From Octopus vulgaris (taxonomy: Eukaryota), in NCBI GenBank assembly GCA_951406725.2, contig OX597831.1, positions 64,294,001-64,358,000 on the forward strand: a stretch of DNA of 64,000 nucleotides, read 5' to 3'. Both the position numbers and the translations under genes were made by a program. The notes beneath the pieces are model-generated. The model had not been told where the DNA came from. It was given only the letters and a program-made list of their open reading frames with translations, and ran no database searches. Within the stretch, counting starts at the first letter, position 1, and the number at the start of each line of letters is the position of its first letter. This document shows, piece after piece, positions 7,949 to 32,292 of this stretch.

Positions 7949-8359
7949 AAATCACCTGCTATGGAGCTGATATCTCTAACAGAATTTTTAAGATAAAATA
8001 AATTTCCTTGCATGGCTTTTCAACAATTCATTGTACCTGTAGTTTCACTATAAGTATATGAGTAAAAATTCTTATATAGACACAAGGTCAGAAATGCTAT
8101 GAGAAGAAAGAGCTGATTAAACCAACCTCAGAACTTCACTGGCTTTTTATTTTATTGGTCCAAAAGAATAAGAGGCAAAGTTGACTTCAACAAAATTCAA
8201 ACTCAGCTCTTAAAGAGCTGGTATAGGTATAATTTTGTCTAACACTAATATTTCTACCGATATGCCATCCCTGTAAGCACATAAGCAGTAAAAGTTTATT
8301 ACAAAAGACAAGAAAACCTAAAGCATGAGTGTAGTGGTGACAGGAAGGAAGCTTCAACA

Positions 8360-8530
8360 GTGTGTCTGAACCACTAGAAATGGCAGCCAAATCTCCCCAA
8401 GGTAATATCCTACCATCTTAAAGAAAACAATAAAGAACATATTATGTAATGTAGTTCTAACTATATGATTTATGGTGAAAAAAAAAGAAGATGGAATGGT
8501 CATGGCCGGAATGATTTTGATTATGATCAA
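8360..8530 (+). mobile_element. Old dispersed repeat family E (SINE-like)
   Basis: CTAGAAAT(A/G)GCAGCCAAATCTCC...GGTCA(T/C)GGCTGGAATG motif recurs at ~15190-15570, 22240-22385, 24230-24830, 31060-31250, 42985-43090, 47270-47420, 50640-50810, 52355-52520, 53230-53400. Confidence 0.6.
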
Positions 8531-9027
8531 GGTTGATCAGATTGGAGCCTGGTGCAGCCTTCTGGCTCGCCAGCCCTCAGTCAAACAGTCCAACCCATGC
8601 CAGCAAGGAAAGCGGACGTTAAACAATGATGATGATGGTGATGTTGATCTGGGACTAAACAACAATTTTGGCATGACCTCACTTGTCATTAAAACTCTAC
8701 AAAGATGAAAATAAACAAACCATTGCAACTTAACCTTTATTTGAATCACGAGGGGTGGTGGCGGCAGCGGCGGCGGTGGTGTGGTGTAGTGGAGTGGAGG
8801 TGGAGATGGTGGTAGTGTGGTAGAGAAGGAGGTTAAAGCTATCAAAGCCACAATTTTAGCTGTGTGTGTGGGGGGAGGGGGTCCATAGATGAAGAAGACA
8901 AAGTTGAACGAAGGAAATTATAACAAGTAATAATTAAGAACAGGCTTTAGTCTGACAATCCAGAAATGACAGCCATTTAGTAGGGTTCGCTGGGAGATCT
9001 GATCAGGAAAAACATACAGATAACATA

Positions 9028-9199
9028 GGTGCAGGAGTGGCTGTGTGGTAAGTAGCTTGCTAACCAACCACATGGTTCCAGGTTCAGTCCCACAGCGTGG
9101 CATCTTGGGCAAGTGTCTTCTGCTATAGCCCCGGGCCAACCAATGCCTTGTGAGTGGATTTGGTAGACGGAAACTGAAAAGAAGCCCGTCGTATATATG

Positions 9200-9232
<33 letters not shown>

Positions 9233-9449
9233 TTGTGTGTCTGTGTTTGTCCCCCTAGCATTGCTTGACAACCGATGCTGATGTGTTTATGTCCCCGTTA
9301 CTTAGCGGTTCGGCAAAAAAGACCGATAGAATAAGTACTGGGCTTACAAAAGAATAAGTCCCGGGGTTGAGTTGCTCGATTGAAGGCGGTGCTCCAGCAT
9401 GGCCACAGTCAAATGACTGAAACAAGTAAAAGAGTAAAAGAGTAAGAGT
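9028..9449 (+). mobile_element. SINE family A, full length
   Basis: Head-to-tail match to family A. Confidence 0.9.
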
Positions 9450-9882
9450 ATATCACATAATCAGGATGAAAATGCGGTGGAATTAGGATTGCAGAGAGGA
9501 GCGGGGTACAGGCTTCTGAGATGGTAATGCAAACAGGATAAAACATGGAAACAAAAGGGAGAAGGCGGCGGTGGTGGTGGTGGTGGTGGTGGAGGAGTAC
9601 CTGCCCCCTATAAACACACACACACCTTCCGTGCACACATACATATATGTGTCTATGTATAATCCGCTCATACTGAATAATGGTCAATACTGAAATGATA
9701 CCAATGGCCATGAATAGAGGTGAGAAAAGGTGGGTATAGGAACTGTAAGAGCTGACCAGAAGGGATTGGAACTGGGTGAATTCACTGGGTTGAGGAAGGG
9801 AGAGAGAGAAAACACTAATAAAAAAAAAAGGGATGGAAATACACACATTAACAGCAGCAAGCAAGCTAATGGGATAAAGCAT

Positions 9883-9883
9883 A

Positions 9884-9934
<51 letters not shown>

Positions 9935-9966
9935 GGCACACAAACACACACACACAAATACACACA
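9883..9966. repeat. (CA)n microsatellite
   Basis: Long CA run. Confidence 0.95.
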
Positions 9967-10764
9967 TATCAGCTGGTACCAGTTTTTTTCTTTCTTTCAG
10001 CTACCACTCCCTTACTTTGTTCAACATTTCCTCTTCCCACAAACCCCCTGCTCCCCTACAACACCCACCCACCCACACCCACACACTGTCCTCCTATCCA
10101 AGCCTTAGAATTATTGAAAGGTGGGTGGAGGAGGAGAAAGGAAGTACAAGAGAGTAATAAAAGAAGATGGAAGTAGGAGAAAGAAAGGAAGAGAGAGAGA
10201 GAGAGTAAGAAGAGTAGTGGTTTCGAATGAGTTCCATTCATGATTCACATTGAATCATTTCCATCCCAGCATAATCCCTATTTTCTTTTCCAGCTGGGCA
10301 GGCTGTTTCATCTGCTCTCCTTTATTATAACACCAGTCTCTCTGTGTGATGTATGCCAGTTCCAACCTCCAGCAAACACTTCACTATATACACTCTCTCA
10401 TCCCTCGCTTCCCATCTCTCTCTCTCTCTCTACTTCATACACACGCATACAGCCTCCAACAATCTTAATACACGGAAAATTAGGATCATTTACTGCGCCG
10501 AGTTTTCAACACTTGCAATCCTGCACTGATTTACTGCACAGTTTTTGTTATTCAGACGTTACGCACAAACGAAACGGAGACAGTAAAACTGAAGTAGCCA
10601 ACTAGGTAAATCATCACACTGCCTGCCCATGAATCACAAGTTCAAATCCACTGCAAGTGCTTTTCTGTGTTCCTGGGGCAGAAAGAACACTTGATTCAAA
10701 TTTGCATTACTTAACCTGTCAGGCAAATCACCTTGAAAATTTATTTTCAAATATCTATTTATTT

Positions 10765-11555
10765 GGCTGTGTGGTAAGTAGCTTGTTTACCAACCACATG
10801 GTTCCGGGTTCAGTCCCACTGCGTAGCACCTTGGGCAAGTGTCTTCTACTATAGCCTCGGGCCAACCAAAGCCTTGTGAGTGGATTTGGTAGACGGAAAC
10901 TGAAAGAAGCCCATCGTATATATGTATATATATGTATATATGCATGTGTGTGTATGTGTATCTATGTTTGTCTCCCTAGCATTGCTTGACAACCGATGCT
11001 GGTGTGTTTATGTCACCCGTTACTTAGCAGTTCGGCAAAAGAGACCGATAGAATAAGTACTGGGCTTACAAAAGAATAAGTCCCGGGGTCGAGTTGCTCG
11101 ATTAAAGGCGGTGCTCCAGCATGGCCGCAGTCAAATGAGTGAAACAAGTAAAAGAGTAAAGAGAGTATTGATGCAGGCATGGCTGTATGTTAAGAAGCTT
11201 GCTTCTCAACCACATGTTTCTGGGTTGAAGCCCACTGCATGGCAACTGGAGCTAGTGTCTTCTACTATAGTCTCGGGCCAACCAAAGCCTTGTGAATGGA
11301 TTTGGTGGATAGAAAATGAAAGAAGCCTCTCTCTCTCTCTCTCTCTTTGTTTTTGTCCCCCACAACCACTTGACTACCACTGTTGGTATGCTTATATCCT
11401 GGTAACTTAGCAGTTTGGCAAAAGAGACTGATAGAATAAGTAACCAGGCTTTAAAAAACTAAGACCTGAGATCAATTTGTTCAACTAAAACCTTTCAAGG
11501 CAGTGCCTCAGCATGGCCACAGTCAAATGACTGAAACAAGTAAAAGATAAAAGAT
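10765..11555 (+). mobile_element. Two tandem SINE family A copies (young + diverged)
   Basis: 10765-11166 and ~11169-11555 both match family A. Confidence 0.85.
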
Positions 11556-11947
11556 GCTTATTTTGAAATCTAATTCAAACACTTATGGAGAGATATATTC
11601 TTGCTAAAAATACGAATGCAGAAAAGGTTAATGCTTATAGATCTTTAAGAATTTGATTGGGTTTCCCAAATATGATTTTTCATTAAGCAGGCTAGTTACT
11701 GGTTAGTAATTGTTGTCAGCCCTCTCAGATACTGTTTCTGTACTACATGTCCTGCAACTGTTCAAAAGGAATATTAATTGATCTGAGAGGGTCTGTAAAA
11801 GTCATAGCCACAGTCCCTCTTCCCTGGAAAAATAAGAAAAAGTTGACATTTGCTGGAAAACTGTGGGATGAGTGGAAACCCCAGAGGGTTTGAGAGTAAG
11901 GATTGGGAATTAAACTGTAGGGGCGATGGGAGTAGGAAAGACAGGTG

Positions 11948-12345
11948 GGATCTTTTTGGTTAACATAATTTCTAGGTAACTAAAAAATTTTAAACTTCGT
12001 ATACTGGTAGAATGTGTTTATAAAACATCTTTTTCTCTTGGCTTTATTGAGAAAATTCTATGGTTTGTAAGATATTTGTTGTTTTTTTTCTTCAATTTCT
12101 GCAATTTCAACCACTCACTGATGTCTATTGAGGTAAAAAAAACATTCTGTGCCGTATGAATATGTCCCTCATTTAAGAAACAGATTGGGTTTATTTACAT
12201 TTGTGAAGAAAAAAAGATACCCTTCCCCCACCCCTAACCCTAAAACAGATTGAAATGCAATAGATCGATACTAGGGTCATAATTATGGGTGACAATTTCA
12301 TATGACACCGCTAGAAAAAAACTGCCGTTCAAACCAAAAAGATCC
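11948..12345. mobile_element. Merlin-like MITE (GGATC..GATCC TIRs)
   Basis: Perfect 8-bp TSD GACAGGTG (11940-11947 / 12346-12353); left TIR internally deleted. Confidence 0.85.
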
Positions 12346-12509
12346 GACAGGTGTGTTGGATAAAAGTAACATGTAACCAGCTAGTTCAGGTGAGCATAAG
12401 CAAATGTAGTAATGACAGAAGAGACAGAGAAATGAGGTAATATGCCTGTAGGTTTGGGATTGTAATATGAGCTATGTAAAGTCTTGTTCTTTAAATATTT
12501 AATGTAAAT

Positions 12510-12720
12510 CAGGGGTTTCTCAACCATTTTTCATCTATGGACCTCTTTGATTACTATTTCATTCTGGTGGACCCCAATAGCCATTCAATGTTTAAAAACT
12601 AGTTTTATTGAAATTTCTTTCATATTTCCTGTTTTGTTTTTCACTAATTAACTTGTATAGGTTGAACTATGCAAAATGTTAGAGATAGAAATTTCTTGCA
12701 ATACATACACCTAAATAAAA
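12510..12720. mobile_element. hAT (Charlie-like) MITE fragment
   Basis: CAGGGGTTTCTCAACC terminus; body shared with 30716-30983 and ~46316-46590. Confidence 0.55.
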
Positions 12721-12727
12721 ATAAATA

Positions 12728-12897
12728 AATGCGCCCTTTTAAAGCCTAGCCAGGCTCATGGGCCCGGTTTCCCAGTTTCTATGGAGTATGTGTTCCCCAG
12801 CTGAACGGGGCGCCAGTCCATCGCAGCATTACTCATTTTTGCCAGCTAAGTGGACTGGGGCAATGTGAAATGAAGTGTTTTGCTCAAGAACACAGCG
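12728..12897 (-). mobile_element. SINE family D variant, 5'-truncated
   Basis: Reverse complement of 61612-61858 from the CORE-like box to the tail. Confidence 0.75.
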
Positions 12898-14066
12898 TTA
12901 CAAGATGCAAAGGATGTGTGTGTGGTTTGAAGAAATGGGGTGGTGCTACTGGCTGATATTTTTAGCATGTCAAACATACACACTGAGGCTTCCATGTTGT
13001 CATTCAAAAAGCATTACACAAGAGCAAATGAACAAACAAGTTCCATAACTTCTGGAGTGTTGGGGGTGGGGTAGTAGAGGAAATCTCTGGGAAGGTATTT
13101 TTCAGGCAGAATTATGAAAAATATGAAAAAAAAAAAAAAGAAAGAAAATGAAAAGGGGTGAGATGCTTATTCAACACACCTGCCCTTTTTGTTTGTTGGT
13201 CCCAATTTCCATCATGAAAATAGGAATGACTGTCAGTCATCATCATAATAATAATCATTTAACATCTGTTCTCTATGCTGGCATGGGTCATACGGCTTCA
13301 CAAGAGCTGGCCAGCTGCCCAGGCTTCATTAGTCTGTTTTGGCACGGTTTCTCTGACTGGATGCCAACCATTTTACAGAGTGTACTGGATGCTTTTACAT
13401 GGCACTGGCACAGATGCTAAAAGCACCAGCACCCACAAGTCTGCAAGACCAGGATCTCTCAGGTGCAAGTGAGTAGTAGAGGATGTGCAGCTGCAATTCA
13501 TGGAACAATTACAGTTTTACTTAGTTTGATATGTCTTCTCGTGCACAGCAAACCACTAGAAGTCTCAGTCCCTTGTTGTCTCCTCACTGAGGCCCAATGT
13601 CCGAGGATCCTTTCTCATCACTTCCCTCCACAATTAGAGATCGGCACTTCTTGACGCAGCTGTATTCAAGGTATCATATTAAGCAGCATGGGGTAGGTTG
13701 AAGGAAGTGGTGCATTGGGTGGATGTAGATATAAAGGGAAATATTAGCAATCAATCAGTGCTTTCAGCACCAAATTTATACTTTTCGAAACAACACTAAA
13801 CAAATAACACAAAGTAGTAAGAAATTCTAAGGTGAGTTAAACAGCATCCCCCACCCCACCACACTCCTCATGCAAGTGTTTTGGCCCTTAACTCCTTACA
13901 CTAAGGGAGCAAAGCTGCATCCCAATCATATTCCTTGGAGATCCCTCAGCTGCTATACTCTATGCTAGTGTCTGCACTGCAATACCCCTAGTTAATTAAG
14001 GTGCCCCAGAGCCAAGGTACCTGGGGTATTGTAATCAGTTCAGCCTGAAATACTAGATGACTATAG

Positions 14067-14196
14067 GATGCCTGTATCCCCTCCAGGGATACAGGCATCT
14101 AGCAACAGGACCTCCGTAATGCTATGATGGACCGTGAAGTCTGACGTAGCATAGTAAATTCCATTGTCTCAACCACGGTCGAACAATGATGATGAT
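14067..14196 (+). mobile_element. RTE-clade LINE 3' end with a 5' fold-back
   Basis: Reads RDTGI*QQDLRNAMMDREV*RSIVNSIVSTTVEQ* (MxDRxxWR-type terminus) followed by (TGA)n; same tip recurs at 58211-58238. Confidence 0.75.
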
Positions 14197-14592
14197 AGGG
14201 TAAATTATACATTCTGAAATTCAACAAGGTAATTTTAATTAAAAAAAAAACAACCCAGTTAATCTATTTCCTTACCAGTGTGTATATCTTTCAATGATAT
14301 GCATCACAAAGAAGGAAAGGTCTATTTTACATGTAGTTTCTTAAGGTTTTACCATTTACTATTTTATATTTATTTCTCTGCAGTGAAATTCTCAGCTGAA
14401 TTATTGTAAATGCCACCATTTTAATGTTAGCAATGAGGGAGCCTCTCTACATCAGTAGTTTTCAACCAGGGTCCGTACAGGCCTTTAAAGTGCCTATAAA
14501 ATTTTGATAAAAATTCTTGTGTAGTAAACTGGTTATATTTCTACAATACACAAACTATTTAAGCATTTTTTTCACACAATTCCTAATAATAT

Positions 14593-14815
14593 TTACTCTT
14601 TTACTCGATTCAGTCATTTGACTGTGACCATGCTGGAGTACCACCTTTAGTTGACCAAATCGACCACAGGACTTATTCTTTGTAAGCCTAGTACTTATTC
14701 TATCGGTCTCTTTTGCCGAACCGCTAAGTTAAACACACCAGCATTAGTTGTCAAGCGATGTTGGGGAGACAAACACAGACACACAAACATACATACACAT
14801 ACATACATCTATATA

Positions 14816-14853
<38 letters not shown>

Positions 14854-14873
14854 CACATACATACATCTATATA

Positions 14874-14918
<45 letters not shown>

Positions 14919-15081
14919 GATGGGCTTCTTTCAGTTGCCGTCTACCAAATCCACTCACAAGGCTTGGGTCAGCCAGAGGCTATAGTAGAAGACACTTGCC
15001 CAAGGTGCCACACAGTGGGACTGAACCGGGAACCATGTGGTTCATTAGCAAGCTACTCACCACACAGCCACTCCTACGCCT
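14593..15081 (-). mobile_element. SINE family A nested in a hAT-like MITE (~14452-15190)
   Basis: Family A reverse complement; flanks CAGTAGTTTTCAACC...GATTGGGAACCTCT. Confidence 0.85.
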
Positions 15082-15956
15082 ATAAACATAAATATAATAG
15101 TTTTTAGACACTGAGTGGCTATTTTACTCAACCTTGAGTAAAATAGGAATCAAAAGGGTCCATTGGCAAAAAATGATTGGGAACCTCTACTCTACGTAAT
15201 CAGTCAACTTGCTAGAAATAATAACATATTCCAACTCATATCACCATCTACCACCCATCAGACAAGGTGGTCCTAGATTTTTCTCCTAAAAAGCAGTATG
15301 GTCATGGTTGGAATGCCTTTGATCATGGGATTATTTGATCATGACTAAACTGGGTCAAAACGACAACCAACAAAGAAACCTCTATATGGTCACTCAACGT
15401 TTTAGAAACATCAGCTCACTCTACCTTAAATCACACATTACTCTCTTAAAAGGACATCTATAAAGACATTTCATAAACGCTGTAAGAGGGGGGAAAAATA
15501 AATGGATGATCATGAATGGACTATTTTTGAGCCCTGCTCTGCCCAACTGGTATTAACTTGTAGCTACACATCAACAAGTTGGATTCTGGCAACAGGCCAA
15601 CAACAACGAGCTGTCAAACAAGGCATTTTACTTACTCATACCAAGGTCATCCAAACTAGATATTAAGCTTTAGTTCATCTCAAGAGTTGACCAACTAATA
15701 CTACAAGTCAGGCAAGTGATGATGTACCGAATGACCTACTCAAAAAGATTCTCAATGTACTGGAAGAGAGCAAAAACTTAACAGGGAAATTTCACTTAAT
15801 TCTGCAATTTTGACAAATATCATTCAGTACATCACCATCTACCATACCTTAAGTCATGCTATAGGCTAAGTTGAGTTATTTCCCTTAGCTCACTCTTGTA
15901 TTTTTGTGGGGTGGGGGAGAAGGAGCAGGAGTAATTTTTTCATACTACACCCTCCT

Positions 15957-16385
15957 CATCATCATCATCGTTTAGCGTCCGCTTTCCATGCTAGCATGGG
16001 TTGGACAGTTCAACAGGGGTCTGGGAAGCCAGAAGGCTGCACCAGGCCCAGTCTGATCTGGCAATGTTTCTACGGCTGGATGCCCTTCCTAACACCAACC
16101 ACTCCGTGAATGTAGTGGTTGCTTTTTACGTGCCACCGGCACAGGTGCCAGACAAGGCTGGCAAACGGCCACGATCGGATGGTGCTTTTTATGTGCCACC
16201 GGCACCATTTAATGCCTGTTTTTTATGCTGGCATGAGTTGGATGGTTTGACAGGATCCAACAAGCAGCAGGGTCACATCAAGCTCCGATGTCAGCTTAAG
16301 CATGGTTTCTATAGCTGGATGCCCTTCCTAATGCCAACCACTTTACAATGTGTACTTAAGTGCTTTTCTCATGCCACCTGCACTA
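15957..16385 (-). mobile_element. SINE family B, one young and one diverged copy
   Basis: (CAT)n, GGATGCCCTTCCTAA twice. Confidence 0.8.
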
Positions 16386-16842
16386 GTGGGGTTACCAAGA
16401 AGAAAATTGTCAATTGTCATATATTCAACAAGTAAACTTTTTTATCTTTACGTTTTTTTGGCATGCTATGTTAAAAGATAAGTCATAAGGAAGTTGAAGA
16501 CACAATTTATATTGAATCAGAGAAAAAAACATTTAGAGATTTCTACTAAATAATTAGAAATATTAAATTTCTAAATATCTCAGAGAGATATGAGCAGTGG
16601 TGGAGCGATAGAGTGGTTGTATACTGTCAACTTAACATGACAGTCCCGTAAAGGGAATTACACCATCCTAGGAAGCATCAACGCTTCCTGTTGGCCTTGA
16701 CACATTTCCTGTGTCCTTATATATTTACGAAGGAGAGACAAGCACCCCCAACAGCTAGGCCTGCATCTAGATAATGTTTTCTAAAAAATGTTTTCTTATC
16801 AAGACTTATGCATTGGCCATTTTACAATTGTATCACATTTTT

Positions 16843-17038
16843 GCACGTAAAAAGCAGTGGCACATAAAAAGCACCCACTACACTCTCGGAGTGGTTGGCA
16901 TTAGGAAGGGCATCCAGCTGTAGAAACTCTGCCAGATCAAGATTGGAGCCTGGTGCAGCCATCTGGTTCGCCAGCCCTCAGTCAAAATTGTCCAACCCAT
17001 GCTAGCATGGAAAGCAGACGTTAAATGATGATGATGAT
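16843..17038 (+). mobile_element. SINE family B, 3' part
   Basis: Core and (GAT)n tail. Confidence 0.85.
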
Positions 17039-17210
17039 TTTTTAATGTAAATGAAAGAAGCTGCAACAGAAGTATGTGCAGTGAGTATGGTTATGAAGAT
17101 AGTTGAGATTCTCTATGACACAGCCAGTCTCAAATCCATGAGTCCAAATATTATCTGATAAAGAACTCAATACTCAAATTAGAGTATTATTATTATTATA
17201 CACATGTGCT

Positions 17211-17437
17211 AAGGCAGCAAGCTAACAGAAGCATTAGCAGGCCAGGCAAAATGCTTAGAGGTATTTCATCCATCTTTACATTCAGAGTTCAAATTCCACC
17301 AAGATCGACTTTACCTTTCATCCTCTTGAGGAGGGAGTCGATAAAATAAGTATCAGTCAAGTACTGGGGTTGATATAATTGACTGGCACACCCCTTCCCT
17401 GAAATTTCAGGCCTTGTGCCTATAGTAGAAAGGATTA
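17211..17437 (+). mobile_element. SINE family C
   Basis: Head, B-box and Nin/Deu-like domain. Confidence 0.8.
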
Positions 17438-17755
17438 TTACACAAATGCACGTATATTATTATATATATATATATCCATTTAAGTATACTACACACGCAC
17501 ACACACACGTGAGCCTTAGGTGCAAAACAAAATGGAGAAAATAGTATTTGAATACCAAAGGTAGAGTAAAATAATGCTTCTCAGCTTCAAAACACACACA
17601 CACACACACAAAGACAGACAGACTGACAAACAGACAGATATATACATATACAAAATTAATCCAAACATGAAAACACAAAGAGAAAACACAACAACGTGAG
17701 GACGTGGAACAAACATAGTATTATTGGATGCTCAGGAAGGAAGGGAAAAAGGAGG

Positions 17756-17790
17756 GTTTCACGTTTTGAGCGGAGCTCTTCGTCAGAAAC
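17756..17790 (-). ncRNA. Decayed minimal hammerhead ribozyme
   Basis: GUUU-CUGACGA-A-GAGC-ucc-GCUC-AAAA-C-GUG-AAAC; G12>A and a GUG site predict inactivity. Confidence 0.55.
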
Positions 17791-17875
17791 ATAGGAAAAG
17801 GAAAGATCCAAGGAAGGGAATACGGAGAAAGAAAATCGCCAATGATACACATGCGGTCATCAGAACAATATATTT

Positions 17876-17940
<65 letters not shown>

Positions 17941-18037
17941 ATCCAAACATGAAAACACAAAGAGAAAACACAACAACGAGAGGACATGGAACAAGTATGT
18001 GTTATTGGGCGCTCAGGAAAGGAAAGAAAGAAGGAGG

Positions 18038-18072
18038 ATTTAACGTTTCGAGCGGAGCTCTTCGTCAGAAAT
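18038..18072 (-). ncRNA. Minimal type I hammerhead ribozyme motif
   Basis: AUUU-CUGACGA-A-GAGC-ucc-GCUC-GAAA-C-GUU-AAAU: intact core, 4-bp stems I and II, palindromic ACGU stem III. Confidence 0.7.
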
Positions 18073-18466
18073 ATAGAAAAAAGAAAGGAAGACAGAGGAA
18101 AAAAATTGCCAACGGTACACACGCGGTCATATATTACAGATGCAAGTTTGACTGTCAGGTTAAAAACTTATTTCCCAACCATGTTGTTACAGGCAAGTAT
18201 CTTCTACTATATCCCAGAGCTAACGAAAGACTTGTGAGTGGATTTGGTAGACAGAAACTGAAAAAAACCTGTTGTTCACTTACTTATGTGCACACGCGCG
18301 TGTGTGTGAGTGCATGTACACCCTTGGTTGTAGTAGTAAAGATAGTAAACAAGCATCACTATCATGCAAGCAATGTTGTTTGTTTCCAGTTGTTCATGAA
18401 AAATATGTCTGCAAGCATGGTAATCTAGGTATGAAATGATAATATATATGTTTGTGTGTGTGTGTA

Positions 18467-18960
18467 ACTTACATTGGTTTCAGCCATTATTGGCCCAGGC
18501 CATGAATAACTCAATAGCACCACCTGGAAAAATCTTTTGGTTAATTATTTTGGGACACCATGGACCACCCAAGCAGAGAGTTGTTGTTGACTGAGACGTA
18601 TCCAAGTGTAGTGGTTTATCCGGTATTTCCTGGAGGGATTTGTCCAGATACCATTTGAAAGTTTATGGGGTCCTTTTCTACTTTAATTTCTTTCAGGATA
18701 ACATTGAAAAGAGCAGCACCATTTGCAGTGAAGAAATTATCATTTGGATAATATTAGTGGAATATTTTCCGCAAGGTGCAAATAACGTATTGCTCACGGC
18801 AGTGTTGCAGAAAAGTTGCCGTCAACAGTTACACCTAAGTCTCTGATATCCAACGGTTTGAGTAAGTCTCCTGACAATAGTGTATATGGTTGTTTGAGTG
18901 TGCCCTCTTCACCAAAGTGGATGAGCTCAAACTTCTCTTCATTCAGCTGCATATTTTTTT
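18467..18960 (-). mobile_element. CR1-clade LINE relic (RT C-terminal piece + ORF2 end + 3' tail)
   Basis: KKNMQLNEEKFELIHFG...RDLGVTVD, then NFFTANGAALFNVI...FKWYLDKSLQEIPDKP...NNSLL, both characteristic of CR1 ORF2; internally deleted. Confidence 0.8.
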
Positions 18961-18989
18961 TTGTTACTGTATTCATATATATATATATA

Positions 18990-19302
18990 TCTTTCTTTGT
19001 GCCCTTTTCAAGCCTAGCCAGCCTCATGGGCCTGGTTTCCCGGTTTCTGTGGCATATGTGTTCCCCCCCAGCTGGACAGGACGCCAGTCCATCGCAGCGT
19101 TACTCAAGAAACAGGAAGAGAGAGTGAGAGAAAGTTGTGGCGAAAGAGTGCAACAGGGGTTGCCACCACCCCCTGGCGGAGCCTCGTGGAGCTTTTAGAT
19201 GTTTTCGCTCAATGAACACACACAACGCCCGGTCTGGGAATCGAAACTGCGATCCTCTGACTGCGAGTCCACTGCCCTAACCACTGGGCCATTGCACCTC
19301 CT
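18990..19302 (-). mobile_element. SINE family D
   Basis: tRNA-Arg-like head GGAGGTGCAATGGCCCAGTGGTTAGGGCAGTGGACTCG; tail as 7372-7662. Confidence 0.8.
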
Positions 19303-19304
19303 CC

Positions 19305-19345
<41 letters not shown>

Positions 19346-19717
19346 ATATACACATGTGTTTTTGTTTCTCTGTCTTCGCATTATGCACTGATTGTTACTT
19401 AACAAACCTCACCACTCTACAATCTTCCATGAAACATTTGTGTTCAAAGGGCTAGAGGAAATATTCCCTTGCATGGAAACAGGTGAAAATTAGCATCAGG
19501 AAGAGCATCTGACTATAGGCAACAAATTTTGTCTGACCCAAGCAAGCACGGAAAATAAGATGTGAGGAGGAGGAGGAGGAGGAGAGATATAAGTACATGC
19601 CTACACAGACACAAATATATATACAATGGCTACTTTCTTATTGATACTAAAGGAAGAAACAGAGAAAAAGACAGCATGGGGTATGTAGCATAAATATTGA
19701 GTGAAATAGTAATATAT

Positions 19718-19900
19718 ATTTCTCTATTGTCCACAAGGGGCTAAACATAGAGGGGACAAACAAAGACAGACAAAGGGATTAAATCGATTACATCGACCCC
19801 AGTGCGTAACTGGTACTTTATTTATCGACCCCGAAAGGATGAAAGGCAAAGTCGACCTCGGCGGAATTTGAACTCAAAACGTAACGGCAGGTGAAATGCT
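19718..19900 (-). mobile_element. SINE family C, 5'-truncated
   Basis: Nin/Deu-like domain plus TTGTCCCCTCTATGTTTAGCCCCTTGTGG tail. Confidence 0.85.
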
Positions 19901-20189
19901 AGCATATTGAGTGGCCACTTGCTAGCTGTGTGTGTATGTGTGTGGTCTACACATATTTCTCTCATTGTCTGTGTACCTGCATCTCATCTCTGTCTACCCA
20001 TATATTTCCTATTTCACCAATTGTCTTATAACTCTTGTCTAAACAGCTGTCTATCCCAACTTTCTGTTTCATTAACTGTCTAACCTCCAGCACCTCTGTA
20101 TATCTCTATAATAGCATTACTTATGTTAGCAAACAGAGACAGCAATTCAGTTCAAATGTATGCCGTTCATGACAGAGAAGACACTAGAC

Positions 20190-20598
20190 AGATCTTTTCG
20201 GTTTGAACGGCAGTTTTTTCTAGCGGTGTCATATGAAATTGTCACCCATAATTATGACCCTAGTATCGATCTATTGCATTTCAATCTGTTTAGGGTTAGG
20301 GATGGGGGAAGGGTATCTTTTTTTCTTCACAAATGTAAATAAACCCAATCTGTTTCTTAAACGAGGGGCATATTCATTCGGCACAGAATGTTTTCACCTC
20401 AATAGACATCATTGATTTGTTGAAATTGCAGAAATTAAAGAAAAAAAACAACAAATATCTTACAAATTATAGAATTTTCTCAATAAAGCCAATAGAAAAA
20501 GATGTTTTATAAACACATTCTACCAGTATACGAAGTTTAAAAGTATTTAGTTACGTGGAAATTATTTTAAAAAACTGCCGTTCAAACTGAAAAGATCC
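20190..20598. mobile_element. Merlin-like MITE
   Basis: ~29-bp TIRs; TSD CACTAGAC/CACAAGAC. Confidence 0.85.
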
Positions 20599-20599
20599 C

Positions 20600-21295
20600 A
20601 CAAGACTGTTAATGTGACAGATGCAAGTAGACAGTTAATGAGACAGGAGTAGGTGACAGCTAATGAGATGAGAAAGACAGAGGTATGTAAACAGTTAAAT
20701 GAGAAATGGTTGGGCAGTTAACAAGACAGACAACAGAGTCAGGAAATAGAGGTAGATAATGAAATAGGAGATACAGGTAGATATTTAATTGAGAAAAGAG
20801 AAAGAAGTAGGTTGTTGATGAGAGGGGGGATAAAAGTAGATAGTTAATGAAAGATGAGACAGGTAGATTTTTAATAAGAAAGATCTAGAGGTACACAATT
20901 AACAAGGTAGATGATAGTAGATATAATGAGACTGGAAGCAGAGATAGAAAGGTAAAGAGACAAAAGACACAGGTAGGTAGTTAACGAGAGGAGAAAGAGA
21001 TAGATGGTCAATGACAGACAAGAATAGGTAAATTGTTAATGAGTAAGATCTAGAGGTATACAATTAAGAAGACAGAAAACAGAAGTAAACAGGAAGTGGA
21101 GATAGGCAGTTAATGAGACAGAAAAGAGACAGGAATACTTAAGAGGTAATGAGACAAGAGACAGGGAGATATTTAATGAGAAAAAGCAGACAGTTAATGA
21201 GAGAAGAGACAGAGGTAGACAGCTAATGAGACCAAAGGAGACAGAGGCAGAATTAATTAGTGAGCAAGAAACAGAGATAGAAAGTTAATGAAACA
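20600..21295 (+). repeat. Degenerate purine-rich minisatellite (core RGGTAGACAGTTAATGAGA)
   Basis: About 20 diverged ~30-bp units; resumes at 21720-21795 after a SINE; inverted units at ~19960-20110. Confidence 0.65.
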
Positions 21296-21714
21296 TTACT
21301 CTTTACTCTCTTTTACTTGTTTCAGTCATTTGACTGTGGCCATGCTGGAGCACTACCTTTAGTCAAGCAAATTGCCCCCAGGACTTATTCTCTGTAAGCC
21401 TAGTACTTATTCTATCGGTCTCTTTTGCCGAACCGCTATGTGACGGGGACGTAAACACACCAGCATCGGTTGTCAAGCGATGTTGGGAGGACAAACACAG
21501 ACAAACACACACACACACATATATACATACACATACATACATACATATATACGACGGGCTTCCTTCAGTTTCCATCTACCAAATTCACTCACAAGGCTTT
21601 GGTCGGCCCGAGGCTATAGTAGAAGACACTTGCCCAAGGTGGCATGCAGTGGGACTGAACCCTGAACCATGCGGTCGGTAAGCAAGTTACTTACTACAAA
21701 GCCACCCCTACGCC
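21296..21714 (-). mobile_element. SINE family A, full length
   Basis: Reverse complement of family A. Confidence 0.9.
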
Positions 21715-24372
21715 TATATAGAGGAAGTCAGCTAATGATACAAAATTAGAGATAGACAGTTAATAAAACAGGGGTAGACAGCTAAAGAAACAGCTCTCTT
21801 TCAATAAAAAAAGGGAGAGGCAGTATTTTTAGCTGTGATAGTAGAAGATGGACTAACAGAATTTAGTGATAAGAATGTCAAAACTAAGAATTAGGAAAAG
21901 ATGAGCAAGAAGTGTCTGATACATTCTTTGTTGTTGAACAAGATCAACTCTGTTGGAAACCTACAATAAAAACTATTCAACCATGACCAACTACCCTCAT
22001 ATGTAGACAGGCTCTAAATTAAAATCTTTCACCAAACTTTTTCATGATTTTATGCTTCAAACACCAAATTAATAACAATAAAGTTTATTTTACTAAAGTC
22101 TTCATTATTTTCGAAATTAATTTAAACAAAAGCAGTGTATTTTAATAGAAATGTGGTAACTGATAACAAAGGGTTAAAATGGTAGGGTATGATTCAATTA
22201 TTTTGATTATTATTTCTAGAAAAGTAAAAGACCACATACAGGCCACCTTATTAAATTATTAAAGTCTTGATAGAATAGACAGATCTACGATTAAAGGCAT
22301 TCCAGCCTTGACTGTGAAGTCTTTTAGTATGAAGAGTGATTTGAGGGTGAATTTGGTTGCTATTTCTAGAAATCAAATGACCACCCCAAAATATATTTAT
22401 TTACATCAACGTTATCCCCTTGATTCAAATAGAAGAAAATCATAGATAACAGGGAACACATTTTTTATATAATTTTATGTAAGTCTAATGAGTCTTCATT
22501 ACCTCCAAGAATTTCATATTTGCCCCACTTGGGGTAACTTACCTCGGTTTGCCAAACCCCTAACAAAGAGCTTCCTTAGATGGTGTTGCTGTTCATGAAT
22601 TAGACCATAAAGTAAAGGATTCAAGCCATGGCCATTACATCTTTTTAAATGTATATCAGGAACTGATAATCCAATTTACTCTTTAAGATGGTGGTGGTGG
22701 TGATGGTGTGTTGGGGGGGGGGGGGTAGAGATGAAGTTTCCATGGAGTGGGGTGTGCACAATGGGGTTAACAAGTAGTAACAAATCAGGGCCAATATATT
22801 AATAAAATATATAACTGTATAAGGGGTCTGTATATAAAAGAAGGAAAAAAAAAGGGGGAACTGATAAAAAAAAAGACAGTGTGGAGGATGGGGATATAAA
22901 TAGTTCCCAAGGGTGTATGTCACAGGCAGAGTTCAGCTTCAAAACATCACTATTGTATTCTATGAACCACATCTAGCTTTAATTCTCTGTCAAGTGAGAT
23001 ATTATCCCTGGGGCTAAGAGAAAGCCTCAAGGGATTTTAACATAATCTTTTCATCACAGAAATGGAGGATTTTTTTTGTGTCTTCAGCACATTCCACACA
23101 CTACGCTTAGTGTTCTCCATCTATAATTACAGGACAGGAGTGTGAAGGAGTGTGGAGGTTGTATGTTTAAGGAAAAGAGGGGAAAATGATGTGTATGCCT
23201 GTGTATGTAAAATAAACACACCATGTTTTTGTAAGAACCTATACAAAGCAATGTATGTAAATAAGAAAGAGTGTTGACTTTAAAGACAAGATCCACTCCT
23301 ATCTTTTAGTTTCCAAAAATTTCAATTAGTTGTCATTTATTGCTGTTATCTCTCTTGCTTTTTGTACCTTTAGGGTCTAAAACCCTCTGGGGGAAGATTT
23401 TGTCTACTAAATCTATGGATAATTGCAGTAAATCGAAGTCTTTTATCTGACAGTATTACAGATGTGAGACTTTACAGTGTGTGTGTCTAGTACGTAGAAT
23501 TTTCCCTTAGGTATTTCCTTCAGTCTGTGTTGATAGGAAGATGAAGATGAGAACATGTGGAGGATGGCAGATAAAAATTTTTAAAAAAACCCAGAAAGAT
23601 ATGGTTATTAAATGAGATTGTATGTAGGAGAGAGAGTTGTGTGTGTGTGTCTGTGTGAATGAAGTAGAAATGGATGAATAAAGGTATTGTATTGTGTGAA
23701 GGGTAGGGTGTATATGAGTGGGATAATGAGGAACAAAATGTGTATGGCTATGTCCACATGTGAGAGACACAAAGTGATATATATATATATATACAAGTAT
23801 ATATATATATATAAGTATATATGTACACAGACACAAGTGTGTGTGTGTGTGTGTGCGTGTGTGTGCATGACATAACAGGTAATGGAGAGAGATTGTGTGT
23901 GGGTGTGTGAAGTATAGGAAGTGCATATATCTGTGATAGAAAATGCAACACAAAAAGACTATGGAAGAGTGTGTGTGTATGTATGTGAAAAAAGATGTTT
24001 TATATGTGATACAGTAAGATTGAGTGTGTGGGGGATGAGAGAGAGGGGTGGGTCTGTCAGTGATAAACTATGTAAGACAAAAAGATGGTGTAGGTGTGTG
24101 TTCAAGAGGGAGGGAGAGAGTGTGTGTGTGTATATGTGTGACTGTAACTTCCTTGGTATAAAACTGAGCTTCCTAAAATTAAGGTTGACTTCTGCTTACG
24201 TAATACTGTGTAATACCATCAGAGCTATTGTGGTTTAGCTCCAGGTCAGCCCTGACCAAATAAACCAATGACCAAAGGCATTTAAACTATATAATTAGGG
24301 GTATCCAAGACTACATTATCCAATGTATCCTTACCTTTTCGAAAATAAGGTATGATTTGTGAGACATTTGAT

Positions 24373-24782
24373 GGATCTTTTCGGTTTGAACGGCAGTTTT
24401 TTCTAACGGTGTCATATGAAATTGTCACCCATAATTATGACCCTAGAATCGATCTATTGCATTTCAATCTCTTTTAGGGTTAGGGGTGGGGGAAGGATAT
24501 CTTTTTTCTTCACAAATGTAAATAAACCCAATCTGTTTCTTAAATGAGGGACATATTCATACGAAACAGAATGTTTTTTACCTCAATAGACGTCACTGAT
24601 TGGTTGAAATTGCAGAAATTGAAGGGAAAAACCCAACAAATATCTTACAAACTATAGAATTTTCTCAATAAAGCCAAGAGAAAAAGATGTTTTATAAACA
24701 CATTCCACCAGTATACGAAGTTTAAAATTTTTTAGTTACCTAGAAATTATGTTAAAAACTGCTGTTCAAACCGAAAAGATCC
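24373..24782. mobile_element. Merlin-like MITE inserted in a family E repeat
   Basis: TIRs GGATCTTTTCGGTTTGAACGGCAGTTTTT; TSD CATTTGAT/TATTTGAT. Confidence 0.85.
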
Positions 24783-25020
24783 TATTTGATTGCTACTTCT
24801 AGGAGGTCATGTGACCACATAGAGGTTTATTTGTACAATACTGCGATTGGGGTAGGTGGGTGTATGCATGTATATGAGTAGATATATGTATGTGTATAGA
24901 TGGAATTGAGAAGAATACTCTGTTGATGTTAGTACACCGCCAACCCTTTTGTTACCATTAATGTGTCTGTTGGCATACACCGTCTTTGTTTCAATTAATT
25001 TTGAAAATAATTGTGAAGAA

Positions 25021-25535
25021 ACTCTACTTGTGAAGACGTGTTGAGGCAAGTGAGGATCAGAATCAAAATCGATCAATGGAAATTGCGGATGTGCTACCAG
25101 TGCCGGTGGCATGTCAAAACTCTGCTTGTGAAGACCCGTTGAGGCAAGTGAGGATCAGAATCGAAATCGATCAATGGAAATTGCAGATGTGTTACCAGTG
25201 CCGGTGGCATGTAAGAGAACTTTCCGTTTCGCGACCGTTGCCAGCACCGCCCCGTTTCGTGTCCGTTGCCAGCCTCGCCTGGCCCTCGTGCCGGTGGCAC
25301 ATAAAAAGCACCATCCGTTCGTGGCCGTTTGCCAGCTCTGTCTGGCACCAGTGCGGGTGGCACGTAAAAAGCACCCACTACACTCACGGAGTGGTTGGCG
25401 TTAGGAAGGGCATCCAGCCGTAGAAACACTGCCAGATTTGACTGGGCCTGATGAAGCCTTCTGGCTTCACAGACCCCAGTAGAACCGTCCAACCCATGCT
25501 AGCATGGAAAACGGACGCTAAACGATGATGATGAT
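25021..25535 (+). mobile_element. SINE family B, long copy, inserted in a piggyBac-like MITE remnant
   Basis: Two 98-bp tandem units, then 60-70-bp modules, core and (GAT)n; TSD TGAAGAA; flanks match the P1 MITE. Confidence 0.85.
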
Positions 25536-26247
25536 GAAGAATTTAGTAAAATAACTGTCGTTATTATGGCAGTATTTTGTCGTTCTGAGTTCAAATTCCG
25601 CCGAGGTCAACTTTGCCTTTCATCTTTTTGGGTACTTAGTTGCATATTGAGGTCGATGTAATTGATGAGCCCCACCCCCAACATTTCAGGACTTGTGCAT
25701 TTAGTAGAAAGGATTATTAAGCTTGTTGTTATAAGGCTATAGTAGAAGACACTTGCCCAAGGTGCCATGCAGTAGGAGTGAACCCAGAACCATGTGGTTG
25801 GGAAGCAAGCTACTTACAACAGAGTCACGATGGTGTCTATAAATATAAAATTAAATAAATAAAAAGCTTTAAAATATGTTTCAATACCGATACAAAAAAA
25901 TATAATCTATGACTGATGAGAAAAAAAAGGTGGATTAGTGTAGTAGGGATCTAATTTGATGGGTGGGTAATGAGGGGCAAGGGCATTAGCAAGAGGTCAT
26001 TGAACTGAAGAATGGCAGGGTAGCTTTGTAAGACTTTACATTCACATAAGTGTACATGTAGGCGTAGGAGTGGCTGTGTGGTAAGTAGCTTGTTTACCAA
26101 CCACATGGTCCCGGGTTCAGTCCCACTGCATGGCACTTTGCGCAAGAGTCTTCTACTATAGCCTCGGGTCGACCAAAATCTTGTTAGTGGATTTGGTAGA
26201 CAGAAACTGAAAGAAGCCCATCGTATATATGTAAATATATATATATC

Positions 26248-26365
26248 GCTTATGGCCATATCACGTTGAAAGCACTGGTTCTCGTCTGATCACCAAAGTT
26301 AAGCAACGTCGAGCCTAGTCAGTACTTAGATGGATGACCGCTTGGGAAACCTAGGTGCAGTAAGT
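26248..26365 (+). pseudogene. 5S rRNA-derived sequence (pseudogene or SINE head)
   Basis: GCTTATGGCCATATCACGTTGAAAGCACTGGTTCTCGTCTGATCACCAAAGTTAAGCAACGTCGAGCCTAGTCAGTACTTAGATGGATGACCGCTTGGGAAACCTAGGTGCAGTAAGT: box A and box C recognisable, CpG-type decay, no oligo-T terminator. Confidence 0.85.
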
Positions 26366-26434
26366 GTAACACATTGTTTCATGGCGGTGCCCCAGCATGG
26401 CCACAGCAAGTGAGCTGAAACTTGATGAAATGAA

Positions 26435-26436
<2 letters not shown>
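26248..26436 (+). mobile_element. 5S rRNA-derived SINE (SINE3-like) or 5S-LINE-tail chimera
   Basis: Full-length 5S-like sequence followed by GGCGGTGCCCCAGCATGGCCACAG..GCTGAAAC..(TGAAA)n, homologous to the family A tail. Confidence 0.75.
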
Positions 26437-26483
<47 letters not shown>

Positions 26484-27474
26484 TGTATGTATGTATGTAT
26501 GTGTCTGTATATGTTTGTGTGTCTGTGTTTGTCCCCCTAACATCGCTGGTGTGTTTACATCACCGTAACTTAGCGGTTCAGCAAAAGAGACCAATAGAAT
26601 AAGTACTAGGCTTACAAAGAATAAGTCCTGGGGTCGATTTGCTCGACTAAAGGCGATGCTCCAGCATGGCCACAGCCAAATGACTGAAACAAGTAAAAGA
26701 GTAGAAAAAGTATGTACACAGATAAAAGAATTTGCATCTGTTTATGAGACGAATATATGTGTGAGTAGAGTGCATGAGGAAAAGAACATCTGTAATAGTA
26801 AGTGTATTTGAGAGAGTATACATTTCCATTATTTTTTTTATTTTATTCATTATTATTTTTTTTTAATTTTACATGAGAAGGGAAGGGCTCACAACATATT
26901 TTGGTGCCTTCATAACTAGTATGAGGAAGGAAGTTACCCCCCAAACAGAAGACTGGCTTAAACGCTTCCAGCAGGGTGGATACCACTAAAGCCCAGATAA
27001 GCCAACCCCTTCAGGTTTGAGAGGCAGAGAGAGTCTGTTGTCTGTACTAATGTATTGTTTGGGGTTTCTTTTTCTTTTATTCTTGAGTGTGAGTATATGC
27101 CTATGTGTAATGGAGTACATGCATTCAGAGGGCAAAGTACATACTTGTATATGTGTACGAGCAAGAAGGGTAGAAGATATGTTTGTCTGTGTATTGGGGG
27201 TCGAGAGCCACTCTGCTATTGGTGTAACTGTGCATGTGTATATAGAAACATATTTGTAAGTATAGATATAACTGCACCTGTGTATGTAGCTATGTATACA
27301 CACCTAGGGATAGAAATGAGTGTCATCCTAAAAGCAGAGGAGATGATTTGCAGGAGCAATAGCTTACAAAATATAAACAGTACCTGTTTACATATATTTC
27401 AAAATTTAATTCTAACATACAGGCAATGTATGAAAACTGATAAATATGTATTAAAGGAACCTTCAGGATGAGAG

Positions 27475-27508
<34 letters not shown>

Positions 27509-27519
27509 TAATTATTATT

Positions 27520-27835
27520 GCCTCGCCTGGCCCCCATGCCGGTGGCACATAAAAAGCACCATCCGATCATGGCCGTTGCCAGCCTCGCCTGGCCCCTGTG
27601 CCGGTGGCACCTAAAAATCAGCATTCGACCGTGGCTGTTTGCCAGCCCTGTCTGGCACGTAAAAAGCACCCACTACACTCACGGAGTGGTTGGCGTTAGG
27701 AAGGGCATCCAGCCGTAGAAACATTGCCAGATCAGACTGGGCCTGGTGCAGCCTTCTGGCTTCCCAGACCCCAGTTGAACCGTCCAACCCATGCTAGCAT
27801 GGAAAGCAGACGCTAAATGATGATGATGATGATAA
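27520..27835 (+). mobile_element. SINE family B in a (TAA)n tract
   Basis: Modules, core, (GAT)n tail. Confidence 0.85.
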
Positions 27836-27996
27836 TGATAATAATAATAATAATAATAATAATCCTTTCAACTGTCAGCACAAGTACAGGACATCACCAA
27901 CAAGTGAAAAATATGTAAACACATAATAAGAGACAAACATAATAATGGGACAAAATAGCAAAAGAAGTTTAACCCGTCCTCAGTTGTCGAGCTACG

Positions 27997-30983: not shown

Positions 30984-31469
30984 CTGCAGTGTTTCACAAA
31001 TAAAACCAGCCTGTTATAGCCTATTGTTATCAAGGCCAGTATATCCTGCTTTAAATCACAGATGCTGTTGCTGTCTGGTTCCAAGTAGGCTCTGATCAAA
31101 GGGATTTTAGTCATGACCATCCCATTTTTCCTCAGACATAATATACATCATCCAATGTCATTTCCGTTTCTTTTCTTTTTTTTCTACTGTTTGGAGTGAT
31201 TTGATATGTGACAGCTATTCAAGCAAGATGAGTCACCACATAGAAGATTCCTTGTTGGCTTGTCACACATATAACAGAACAATTAAGTAAAAGTGGTTCT
31301 TATGGAATAAAGCCTGCATCACTGACTTAGTCTACCTCTTTACAAAAAATCCTAACCAATAAACTCGGTATATTACTAATATTTATTTTAGTGATTCTGT
31401 AAGAATAAAGAGCAAAAAGTGAGTTAGTGTGATTTTAATTTAGATCAGCAAAAGGTTGAACTAGGTATG

Positions 31470-31864
31470 ATAACACCGCCAATCGCCGACTTCGCCTGTC
31501 TCTGCAGCCCCTTCCATCTGTCCTTCTGCAACGGCGCTTGCGGTGGTTTGGCCATGCATGTAGGCATCCAGTGGGTGAACTGAGCTATGATGTCCTTCTC
31601 CCAACTCCACTTCCCAACTGGCGGAAACGCACAGGCGGGCAGCTGAAGACCTGGGTTATGACGATCAAGGAGGACCTCTCCGTGCTCACGGGTCCGCAGG
31701 TGGTCGGCCTGCGCCGATGAAACTGTGACTGGCTCGCTATCTCCAGTGAACTGGCGCAGGACCGTCGTACTGTGGGCTGCCATGGTTCGAGATGCCTCAA
31801 GGGTGGTAGAAGAAGCTGACTCAACCCGCCCAGGGTGAATGTCACCACAAGTACAAGTACAAGA
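31470..31864 (+). mobile_element. RTE-clade LINE 3' end, 5'-truncated
   Basis: RRLRWFGHACR...WRKRTGGQLKTW..TIKEDL...ELAQDRR..WAAMVRDA, tail (CAAGTA)n; GC-rich relative to flanks. Confidence 0.85.
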
Positions 31865-32292
31865 TAACATATCTACACTAGCTCTCTATCTTCTGCAATC
31901 TCATTGTAATAATGAAGAAATAATAGTCTTTTCTTTTATTTCCACAAGGGTATCAAACAAGGAAGGCATTACAGGGACAGATTACAAAACATGTGATGTT
32001 TACAAAGAAACTTGTTGATAAAAAAAATAATAGTATTCATTGTACACAAATATGTTGACTCCAAGAGTTAGTAGATAGAGAAGAGATGAGAGAAGTCATC
32101 CCTGACAGTTGAAGCATGTGATTCAAAATAATTCTGATAGCCATTTTAGTCTGACCACCAAGCAGATGCCAGTGTACCCCAAAGAAATGGGTCTCTGAAA
32201 ACAGGACCAAAACTGATTGTAGTGAGAATCAAAACTGACTGCAACAATGGTTGACCTATTCAAAACCGTTTGATTAATTCCAGCTGATCAAA

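Follow-up and report, generated by a model that had tools for sequence, protein, structure and literature searches.

Analysis of a 64,000-nucleotide stretch of Octopus vulgaris DNA (referred to here as the window) identified two ~200-bp units on the minus strand, 282 bp apart, each with one minimal type I hammerhead ribozyme (HHR). The best explanation of the pair, to which we give a probability of about three in four, is that both units are HHR-bearing pseudo-LTRs (pLTRs) of a Penelope-like element (PLE), that they likely represent separate insertions into one TA repeat, and that they are likely whole cDNAs of a capped, uncut RNA starting ~80 bases upstream of the ribozyme. Judged by its sequence, the element is of the Neptune/Nematis type, a known kind of PLE.

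Copy 2 (17936..18135, minus strand) is a short pLTR/3′-end PLE copy that belongs to the G·U/U4 subfamily and has lost 12 bp on the 5′ side of its ribozyme. Its HHR (18038..18072, read from 18072 to 18038) has an intact core, built from the successive segments ATTT, CTGACGA, A, GAGC, TCC, GCTC, GAAA, C, GT, T and AAAT. The pair listing places stem I at 18072-18069 with 18041-18038 and stem II at 18060-18057 with 18053-18050; the ACGT palindrome that would form stem III lies at 18046-18043, and cleavage is predicted after GUU, at 18042/18041. Copy 1 (17653..17860, minus strand), likewise a short pLTR/3′-end copy, is of the G-C/U4 subfamily, with G·U-like letters at three 5′ sites, and holds the counterpart of the copy 2 motif 282 bp lower (17756..17790), with stem I formed by GTTT and AAAC. 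The copies share 164 of 190 aligned columns (86%; 81% by BLAST). Between them lies a 69-bp (TA)n tract (17868..17936; 34.5 copies by TRF), the putative insertion target or tail. The copy 1 core carries two disabling changes, G12 to A at 17767 and a G at position 17 (17760), which falls outside the NUH rule, and this HHR is predicted to be inactive. In a test of the core (CUGANGA ... GAAA ... UH plus stems I and II), copy 2 passed and copy 1 failed at G12 and N17. The window contains two matches to the core pattern, where 0.03 were expected, and none of 100 shuffles reached two. An earlier, sequence-only reading of this DNA had proposed a minimal HHR in each unit, which the sequence and the pattern test confirmed, and had noted the loss of G12 in copy 1, which stands, while overlooking the second lesion at position 17.

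The window HHR has an unpaired base between positions 9 and 10.1, a G10.1-C11.1 pair and a palindromic 15.2-16.2. In the sections of Cervera and De la Pena 2014 (PMC4209133) consulted, minimal HHRs of PLEs are characterised by the extra base between A9 and G10.1, and the G10.1-C11.1 pair and the palindrome are listed among their traits; the lack of loop 3, the 4-bp stem I and the prevalence of single motifs from truncated PLEs, with a few motifs flanking a full ORF, are also shared. The octopus family differs from those HHRs in its stem II of 4 bp rather than 7-8, in its majority core CCGANGA (U4C), which those sections do not mention, and in a modal short class of copies with an extra G. As had been anticipated, the palindromic stem III (ACGT, with no loop 3) would need a dimer in order to form. 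In a 480-nt window RNA the HHR fold was not favoured (stem I pairing <0.01), and the pair is predicted not to self-cleave. An Rfam search of the window, a check proposed in the sequence-only reading, returned no hammerhead at gathering score or at E<=10.

Assignment to a PLE is based on the longer relatives of the units, which form a nested 5′-truncation series reaching into a CA-rich 3′ UTR while the 3′ end stays fixed. One locus, L063, contains a 1008-codon stop-to-stop frame with a reverse transcriptase (RT; YIDD), a CX4CX2C linker and a GIY-YIG-type endonuclease (EN) motif, LIYC..C..YVGQTGR, and this frame sits between two 766-bp repeats that are 99.5% identical and carry the same HHR. Pfam placed RVT_1 on the frame at E 0.002, below the cut-off, and gave no GIY-YIG match, so that the EN assignment is motif-based. 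Window-type ends lay on the same strand 0.9-1.9 kb behind broken RT-EN frames in 8 of 17 ORF regions, with none clear in the other 9, and the end at one such locus (L097) was 87-89% identical to both window copies. A same-strand HHR pair corresponded to a full element in one of three such regions (L063). These sequence comparisons firmly place the units in this family and link it to RT and GIY-YIG frames, and the connection to Penelope pLTRs drawn in the earlier reading was borne out by the same end flanking such frames.

The L063 protein had at least 72 scored matches at 94-100%, including full-length tandems. A trimer and a dimer of this young PLE were found: three near-identical ~6.2 kb copies head to tail at G000:C10:97806499-97825100 (L305-L307), and two at G000:C16:15981000-15993500 (L308-L309). 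In several of the young copies the frame is shifted within its C-rich 5′ part, which leaves 883-898 codons from stop to stop in place of 1008. The family thus shows the features of an EN+ PLE, with an RT and C-terminal GIY-YIG frame, pLTRs or partial tandems with an HHR, and a fixed 3′ end. It has the CX2-5CxxC linker and (TA)n target of Neptune, the linker being found in Nematis as well, and domain order, linker and target would fit either clade. The parts of Craig et al. 2021 (PMC8557442) covered here describe Neptune/Nematis EN+ PLEs with a C-terminal GIY-YIG domain after the RT, a Cys-rich linker and an EN motif containing two Cys, and also partial tandems, a preference for (TA)n and an HHR near the 3′ end, all as here; the octopus family differs in its ~2-kb CA-rich 3′ UTR. 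Other PLE frames were also encountered. L065:1180-3265 holds a different RT and GIY-YIG frame, split by one frameshift, in DNA unrelated to the window-family ends. A tandem of three degraded PLE frames, spaced by ~6.2-6.4 kb, occupies G000:C8:24514000-24538000 (L098-L100), and no window-type end or HHR was detectable there.

A genome-wide search (2.8 Gb) with a 29-letter exact core gave 11,261 matches, 3,238 with U4 and 8,023 with C4, and a 34-letter pattern 3′ of the cut gave 8,338; the reversed controls gave none. The large family that had been proposed, and for which a genome-wide collection of copies had been suggested, is therefore real. Three samples were taken from contig C1: 60 of the first 68 U4 matches listed (7 were already in the set and 1 was skipped), the first 30 C4 matches listed, and the first 30 matches listed for the 3′ pattern (the 3′-anchored sample), which partly overlaps the C4 sample. 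Family copies throughout the genome end alike at the 3′ side, in TTTGGATTAA followed by a TA repeat, and this comparison establishes a fixed 3′ end in (TA)n. Neighbours within 2.7 kb were seen at six of the 60 U4 loci (3 direct, 3 inverted, no triple), and a neighbour within 1.5 kb at 6 of 30 loci in each of the C4 and 3′-anchored samples, some of them counted twice; a nearby second copy is common in this family. No same-strand pair within 1 kb occurred among the first 100 core matches listed. Head-to-head inverted pairs of short copies, 60-150 bp apart, were observed at L024, L064 and L135, a known inverted-pLTR layout of PLEs. A second minimal HHR family was found in four loci (L004:127-193, L016:2129-2198, L082:171-237 and L214:2238-2304), with the same core, extra A and ACGT palindrome, an ACAC/GTGT stem I, a 5-bp stem II and a loop of ~10 nt.

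The two window copies differ in their origin. A tree of 94 units formed a ladder of subfamilies with copy 1 in the G-C/U4 group and copy 2 in the G·U/U4 group. Seven diagnostic sites lie 3′ of the cut, and at 7/7 of them copy 1 was of the G-C type and copy 2 of the G·U type; at three sites 5′ of the cut, copy 1 was of the G·U type at 3/3. No private change was common to the two copies beyond the trimmed 5′ columns. Copy 1 had its best relatives elsewhere in the genome, at 92-95% identity, and copy 2 had relatives elsewhere at 87-91%, agreed with the majority of its group at 172 of 182 positions and was 87% identical to the ORF-linked end in L097. A topology test did not reject the two copies as sisters (p-AU 0.113; 93 of 94 rows, one short row being omitted). 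Since the copies are of different subfamilies, an origin that the diagnostic sites firmly indicate, and have no private change in common, they were likely inserted separately into one TA repeat.

The outer pair of stem I in 93 sampled units was G-C in 59, G·U in 25 and A-U in 6, states that are compatible with pairing, and was unpaired in 3. A covariation test, in whose alignment four rows from the second family were misaligned, found one pair with a two-sided change, and 357 of 500 shuffles scored as high. The stem I difference between the window copies, which had been read as covariation, is real, but by sequence it consists of subfamily states (G-C, G·U and A-U) that would have arisen in two inherited one-sided steps through G·U, and it lies within the range of the shuffles and is weak evidence.

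The HHR core varies between branches. U4C is the majority variant genome-wide, and was present in 98 of the first 100 young copies listed and in 17 of 18 full-length loci fetched; C4 is also found in an older branch (L106, L113), so it may be a state that is tolerated and not a step that weakens the ribozyme. A further group of 165 copies carries G17. The C3-to-U16.1 block agreed between the old and the young groups at 25 of 26 positions, compared with 112 of 179 in the flanks and 79% in ORF DNA, and after the U4C change at 26 of 26 compared with 113 of 173 (65%) in the flanks. On these comparisons the HHR motif is under constraint. The young branch carries GUC, the best hammerhead cleavage triplet. 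The U4C change of the youngest branch is predicted to weaken the ribozyme; in a viroid, U4C cleaves more weakly in vitro yet suffices in vivo, according to the portion of PMC3088659 consulted. Our reading is that HHR cleavage in this family would be low and gated.

Two alternative accounts of the ribozyme were weighed. The sequence-only reading proposed that the pair is a non-LTR retrozyme and a source of ~282-nt unit RNA and circles (given there as ~280 nt), and the two same-strand HHRs 282 bp apart, together with the derivation of animal retrozymes from PLE pLTRs (Li et al. 2026, bioRxiv 10.64898/2026.07.22.740005, as far as covered), speak for it. This account was rejected and is now very improbable. 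Family members are mostly single copies linked to PLE RT-EN frames, the window copies differ in subfamily and lack a common private change, and the spacer between them is a microsatellite. In a cross-copy dimer stem I would have A·C and G·U as its outer pairs, the copy 2 core would meet G17 and the A·C pair, and the copy 1 core has G12A, so that both sites would be crippled. Animal non-LTR retrozymes, as described in the parts of PMC7229834 and Li et al. 2026 consulted, resemble the family in that they are short units related to PLEs, do not code for protein, carry a type I HHR and include many monomers, but the window family has no tandem arrays of short units: a direct neighbour was present at 3 of 60 loci, with no triple, and no array of at least three short units occurred among the sampled loci. 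With G12A and G17 in copy 1, the pair does not comprise two complete HHRs as Li et al. describe, and the motif is minimal, without an Rfam match, rather than a canonical HHR with contact between loops 1 and 2. A second account, which we consider unlikely, holds that the conserved 26-nt block no longer cleaves and is kept for another job, such as protein binding or as a promoter or RT signal. The prevalence of U4C among the young copies listed, the G17 group and an HHR fold that is not favoured in window RNA all point in this direction, and Craig et al. raise the possibility that HHRs parasitise PLEs (PMC8557442, in part). Against it, the second family retains the core with different stem I and stem II pairs, the young branch has kept its GUC triplet, the less active U4C still supports a viroid (PMC3088659, in part), and an anole PLE HHR cleaves only with protein (PMC11167929, in the sections covered).

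The 5′ ends of the copies carry the evidence for the RNA template. Relative to the start of TTTC, 51 of the 60 U4 loci (52 after one alignment correction) had their 5′ end at -83 to -49, with 7 longer and 1 shorter, and 18 of 30 loci ended at -81 to -59 in both the C4 and the 3′-anchored sample. The A of TCATTC forms the upper edge; this word is initiator-like when set against the initiator consensus. The letter before ATTC at (TA)n junctions, counted by hand in the first 100 of 104 matches listed, was G in 53, C (the templated letter) in 24, A in 16 and T in 7; in a control three bases further in, G was absent from the first 100 of 653 matches listed. After TATAT in the window the ratio of A to G was 1242:165, and the ratio of G to A at the junctions is thus 25-fold over the window background. 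The 5′ edge at TCATTC is therefore sharp and bears an excess of untemplated G. In the 3′-anchored sample 1 of 30 copies started near the HHR cut, with no pile-up there; patterns that require the core are blind to cut templates, and these 30 loci are the only sample that tests for them. For L1, an extra G is the mark of capped, full-length inserts (PMC11702581, in part), and in Penelope the upstream pLTR is where transcription begins (PMC2377424, in part). Because of the sharp edge, the untemplated G and the absence of a pile-up at the cut, most older copies are likely to be whole cDNAs of the first ~215 nt of a capped RNA, made across an uncut HHR.

The youngest branch differs. Among 70 of its 618 copies, 34 measured at least 1.4 kb, whereas 6 ended within 100 nt; 4 had their end at the site homologous to the edge, and a clear extra G was present in none. 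This branch is mostly without the short class, which counts against generality; either older masters had a stronger start at TCATTC, or the short copies themselves acted as masters.

The latter possibility can be extended to a SINE-like, non-autonomous family in which solo ~215-bp copies are transcribed from +1, with flanking (TA)n as TATA box, and mobilised in trans by the PLE protein. We regard this as possible but rather doubtful. Short copies dominate the older subfamilies (about 85%) and not the young autonomous one (9%), rotifer pLTRs carry TATA and Inr motifs (PMC3846280, in the part covered), and an A17 sub-branch has a long upstream extension in 0 of 20 copies; other older groups also have only ~4% extended copies, however, so that 0 of 20 is not distinctive, and the short copies follow the subfamily ladder of ORF-linked or long copies, several extending 10-25 nt past the edge. 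It is quite improbable that the edge reflects an RT pause, or microhomology of ATTC or TATGTG with TA/TG repeats, rather than a transcription start. Many ends do lie at TATGTG (-73 to -76), and most edge junctions read simply TAT-ATTC, an outcome that (TA)n microhomology could promote as well, but neither the element, which has C at this position, nor pure (TA)n offers a source for the G in 53 of 100 junctions listed, and few old copies reach the upstream CA/TA-rich 3′ UTR, which is equally microhomologous.

Copying of a capped, uncut RNA remains the preferred reading, and has a close parallel in the anole Poseidon element PAc. In the sections of Frangieh et al. 2024 (PMC11167929) consulted, this PLE primes internally and inserts uncut RNA, and HHR mutants leave insertion in vitro unaffected; it shares with the octopus family a fixed 3′ end downstream of the HHR, an AT-rich target and, probably, an uncut RNA template. 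PAc belongs to another clade, and its RT start lies inside the ORF whereas that of the octopus element would lie upstream of it; the octopus case is known from genomic sequence only. In the mechanism that we propose, an ORF-bearing element would be transcribed by Pol II from its upstream pLTR, beginning at the A of TCATTC. The element protein would nick (TA)n, and reverse transcription would begin at an internal site ~135 nt downstream of where the ribozyme begins. Use of the first such site would give ~215-bp stubs, and use of the second, in the 3′ pLTR, would give long copies. Selection would keep the ribozyme in the master lineage, likely tuned low by its loopless stem III, 4-bp stem I and, later, U4C, so that most template RNA would stay whole.

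The sequence-only reading had put the pair on the strand of a host gene and probably inside its intron. The one exon candidate with clean signals, an open stretch of 135 nt with AG and GTGAGT at 48586-48452 (minus strand), lies 30 kb upstream of the pair and has no Pfam match; a scan for splice signals gave no convincing exon downstream of the pair, and Pfam had no match among 150 of 252 candidate frames in the window. Contigs aligned to positions 8000-27900 in search of RNA evidence were dominated by repeats and yielded no usable sign of splicing, RNA ends or circles. A single 5S rRNA-like sequence (26248-26366, plus strand; 101 bits) lies among repeats and is likely a pseudogene or the head of a 5S-derived SINE. 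Broken LINE remnants without Pfam match are present at 18560-19100 (minus strand) and 31450-31880 (plus strand), which from their RT 3′-end motifs we take to be CR1/L2-like and RTE-like, respectively.

In the texts covered by the literature search, neither this family nor U4C in a PLE nor short PLE copies with a cap-derived G were reported. Lunse et al. 2016, on PLE HHR dimers, may already cover molluscan or core-variant cases. The main text of an octopus repeat paper (PMC13282606), in the part covered, mentions neither ribozyme nor hammerhead.

The window pair itself is ordinary debris; what matters is the family to which it belongs. In its furthest-reaching form, which we consider speculative and on balance unlikely, the lineage would spread from capped, uncut RNA with its hammerhead tuned down, leaving tens of thousands of ~215-bp complete cDNAs that run from the cap to the internal RT start, some Pol II SINE-like masters would borrow a TATA box from (TA)n, and the U4C ribozyme of the active branch would be a protein- or dimer-gated switch. 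The role of PLE hammerheads is an open question in the parts of PMC8557442 and PMC11167929 consulted. This family provides genome-scale evidence for uncut integration templates and a transcription start predicted to the base, and its near-identical full-length elements that differ at U4/C4 make cleavage and mobility directly comparable, so that it is a useful test case for the role of the hammerhead in PLEs.
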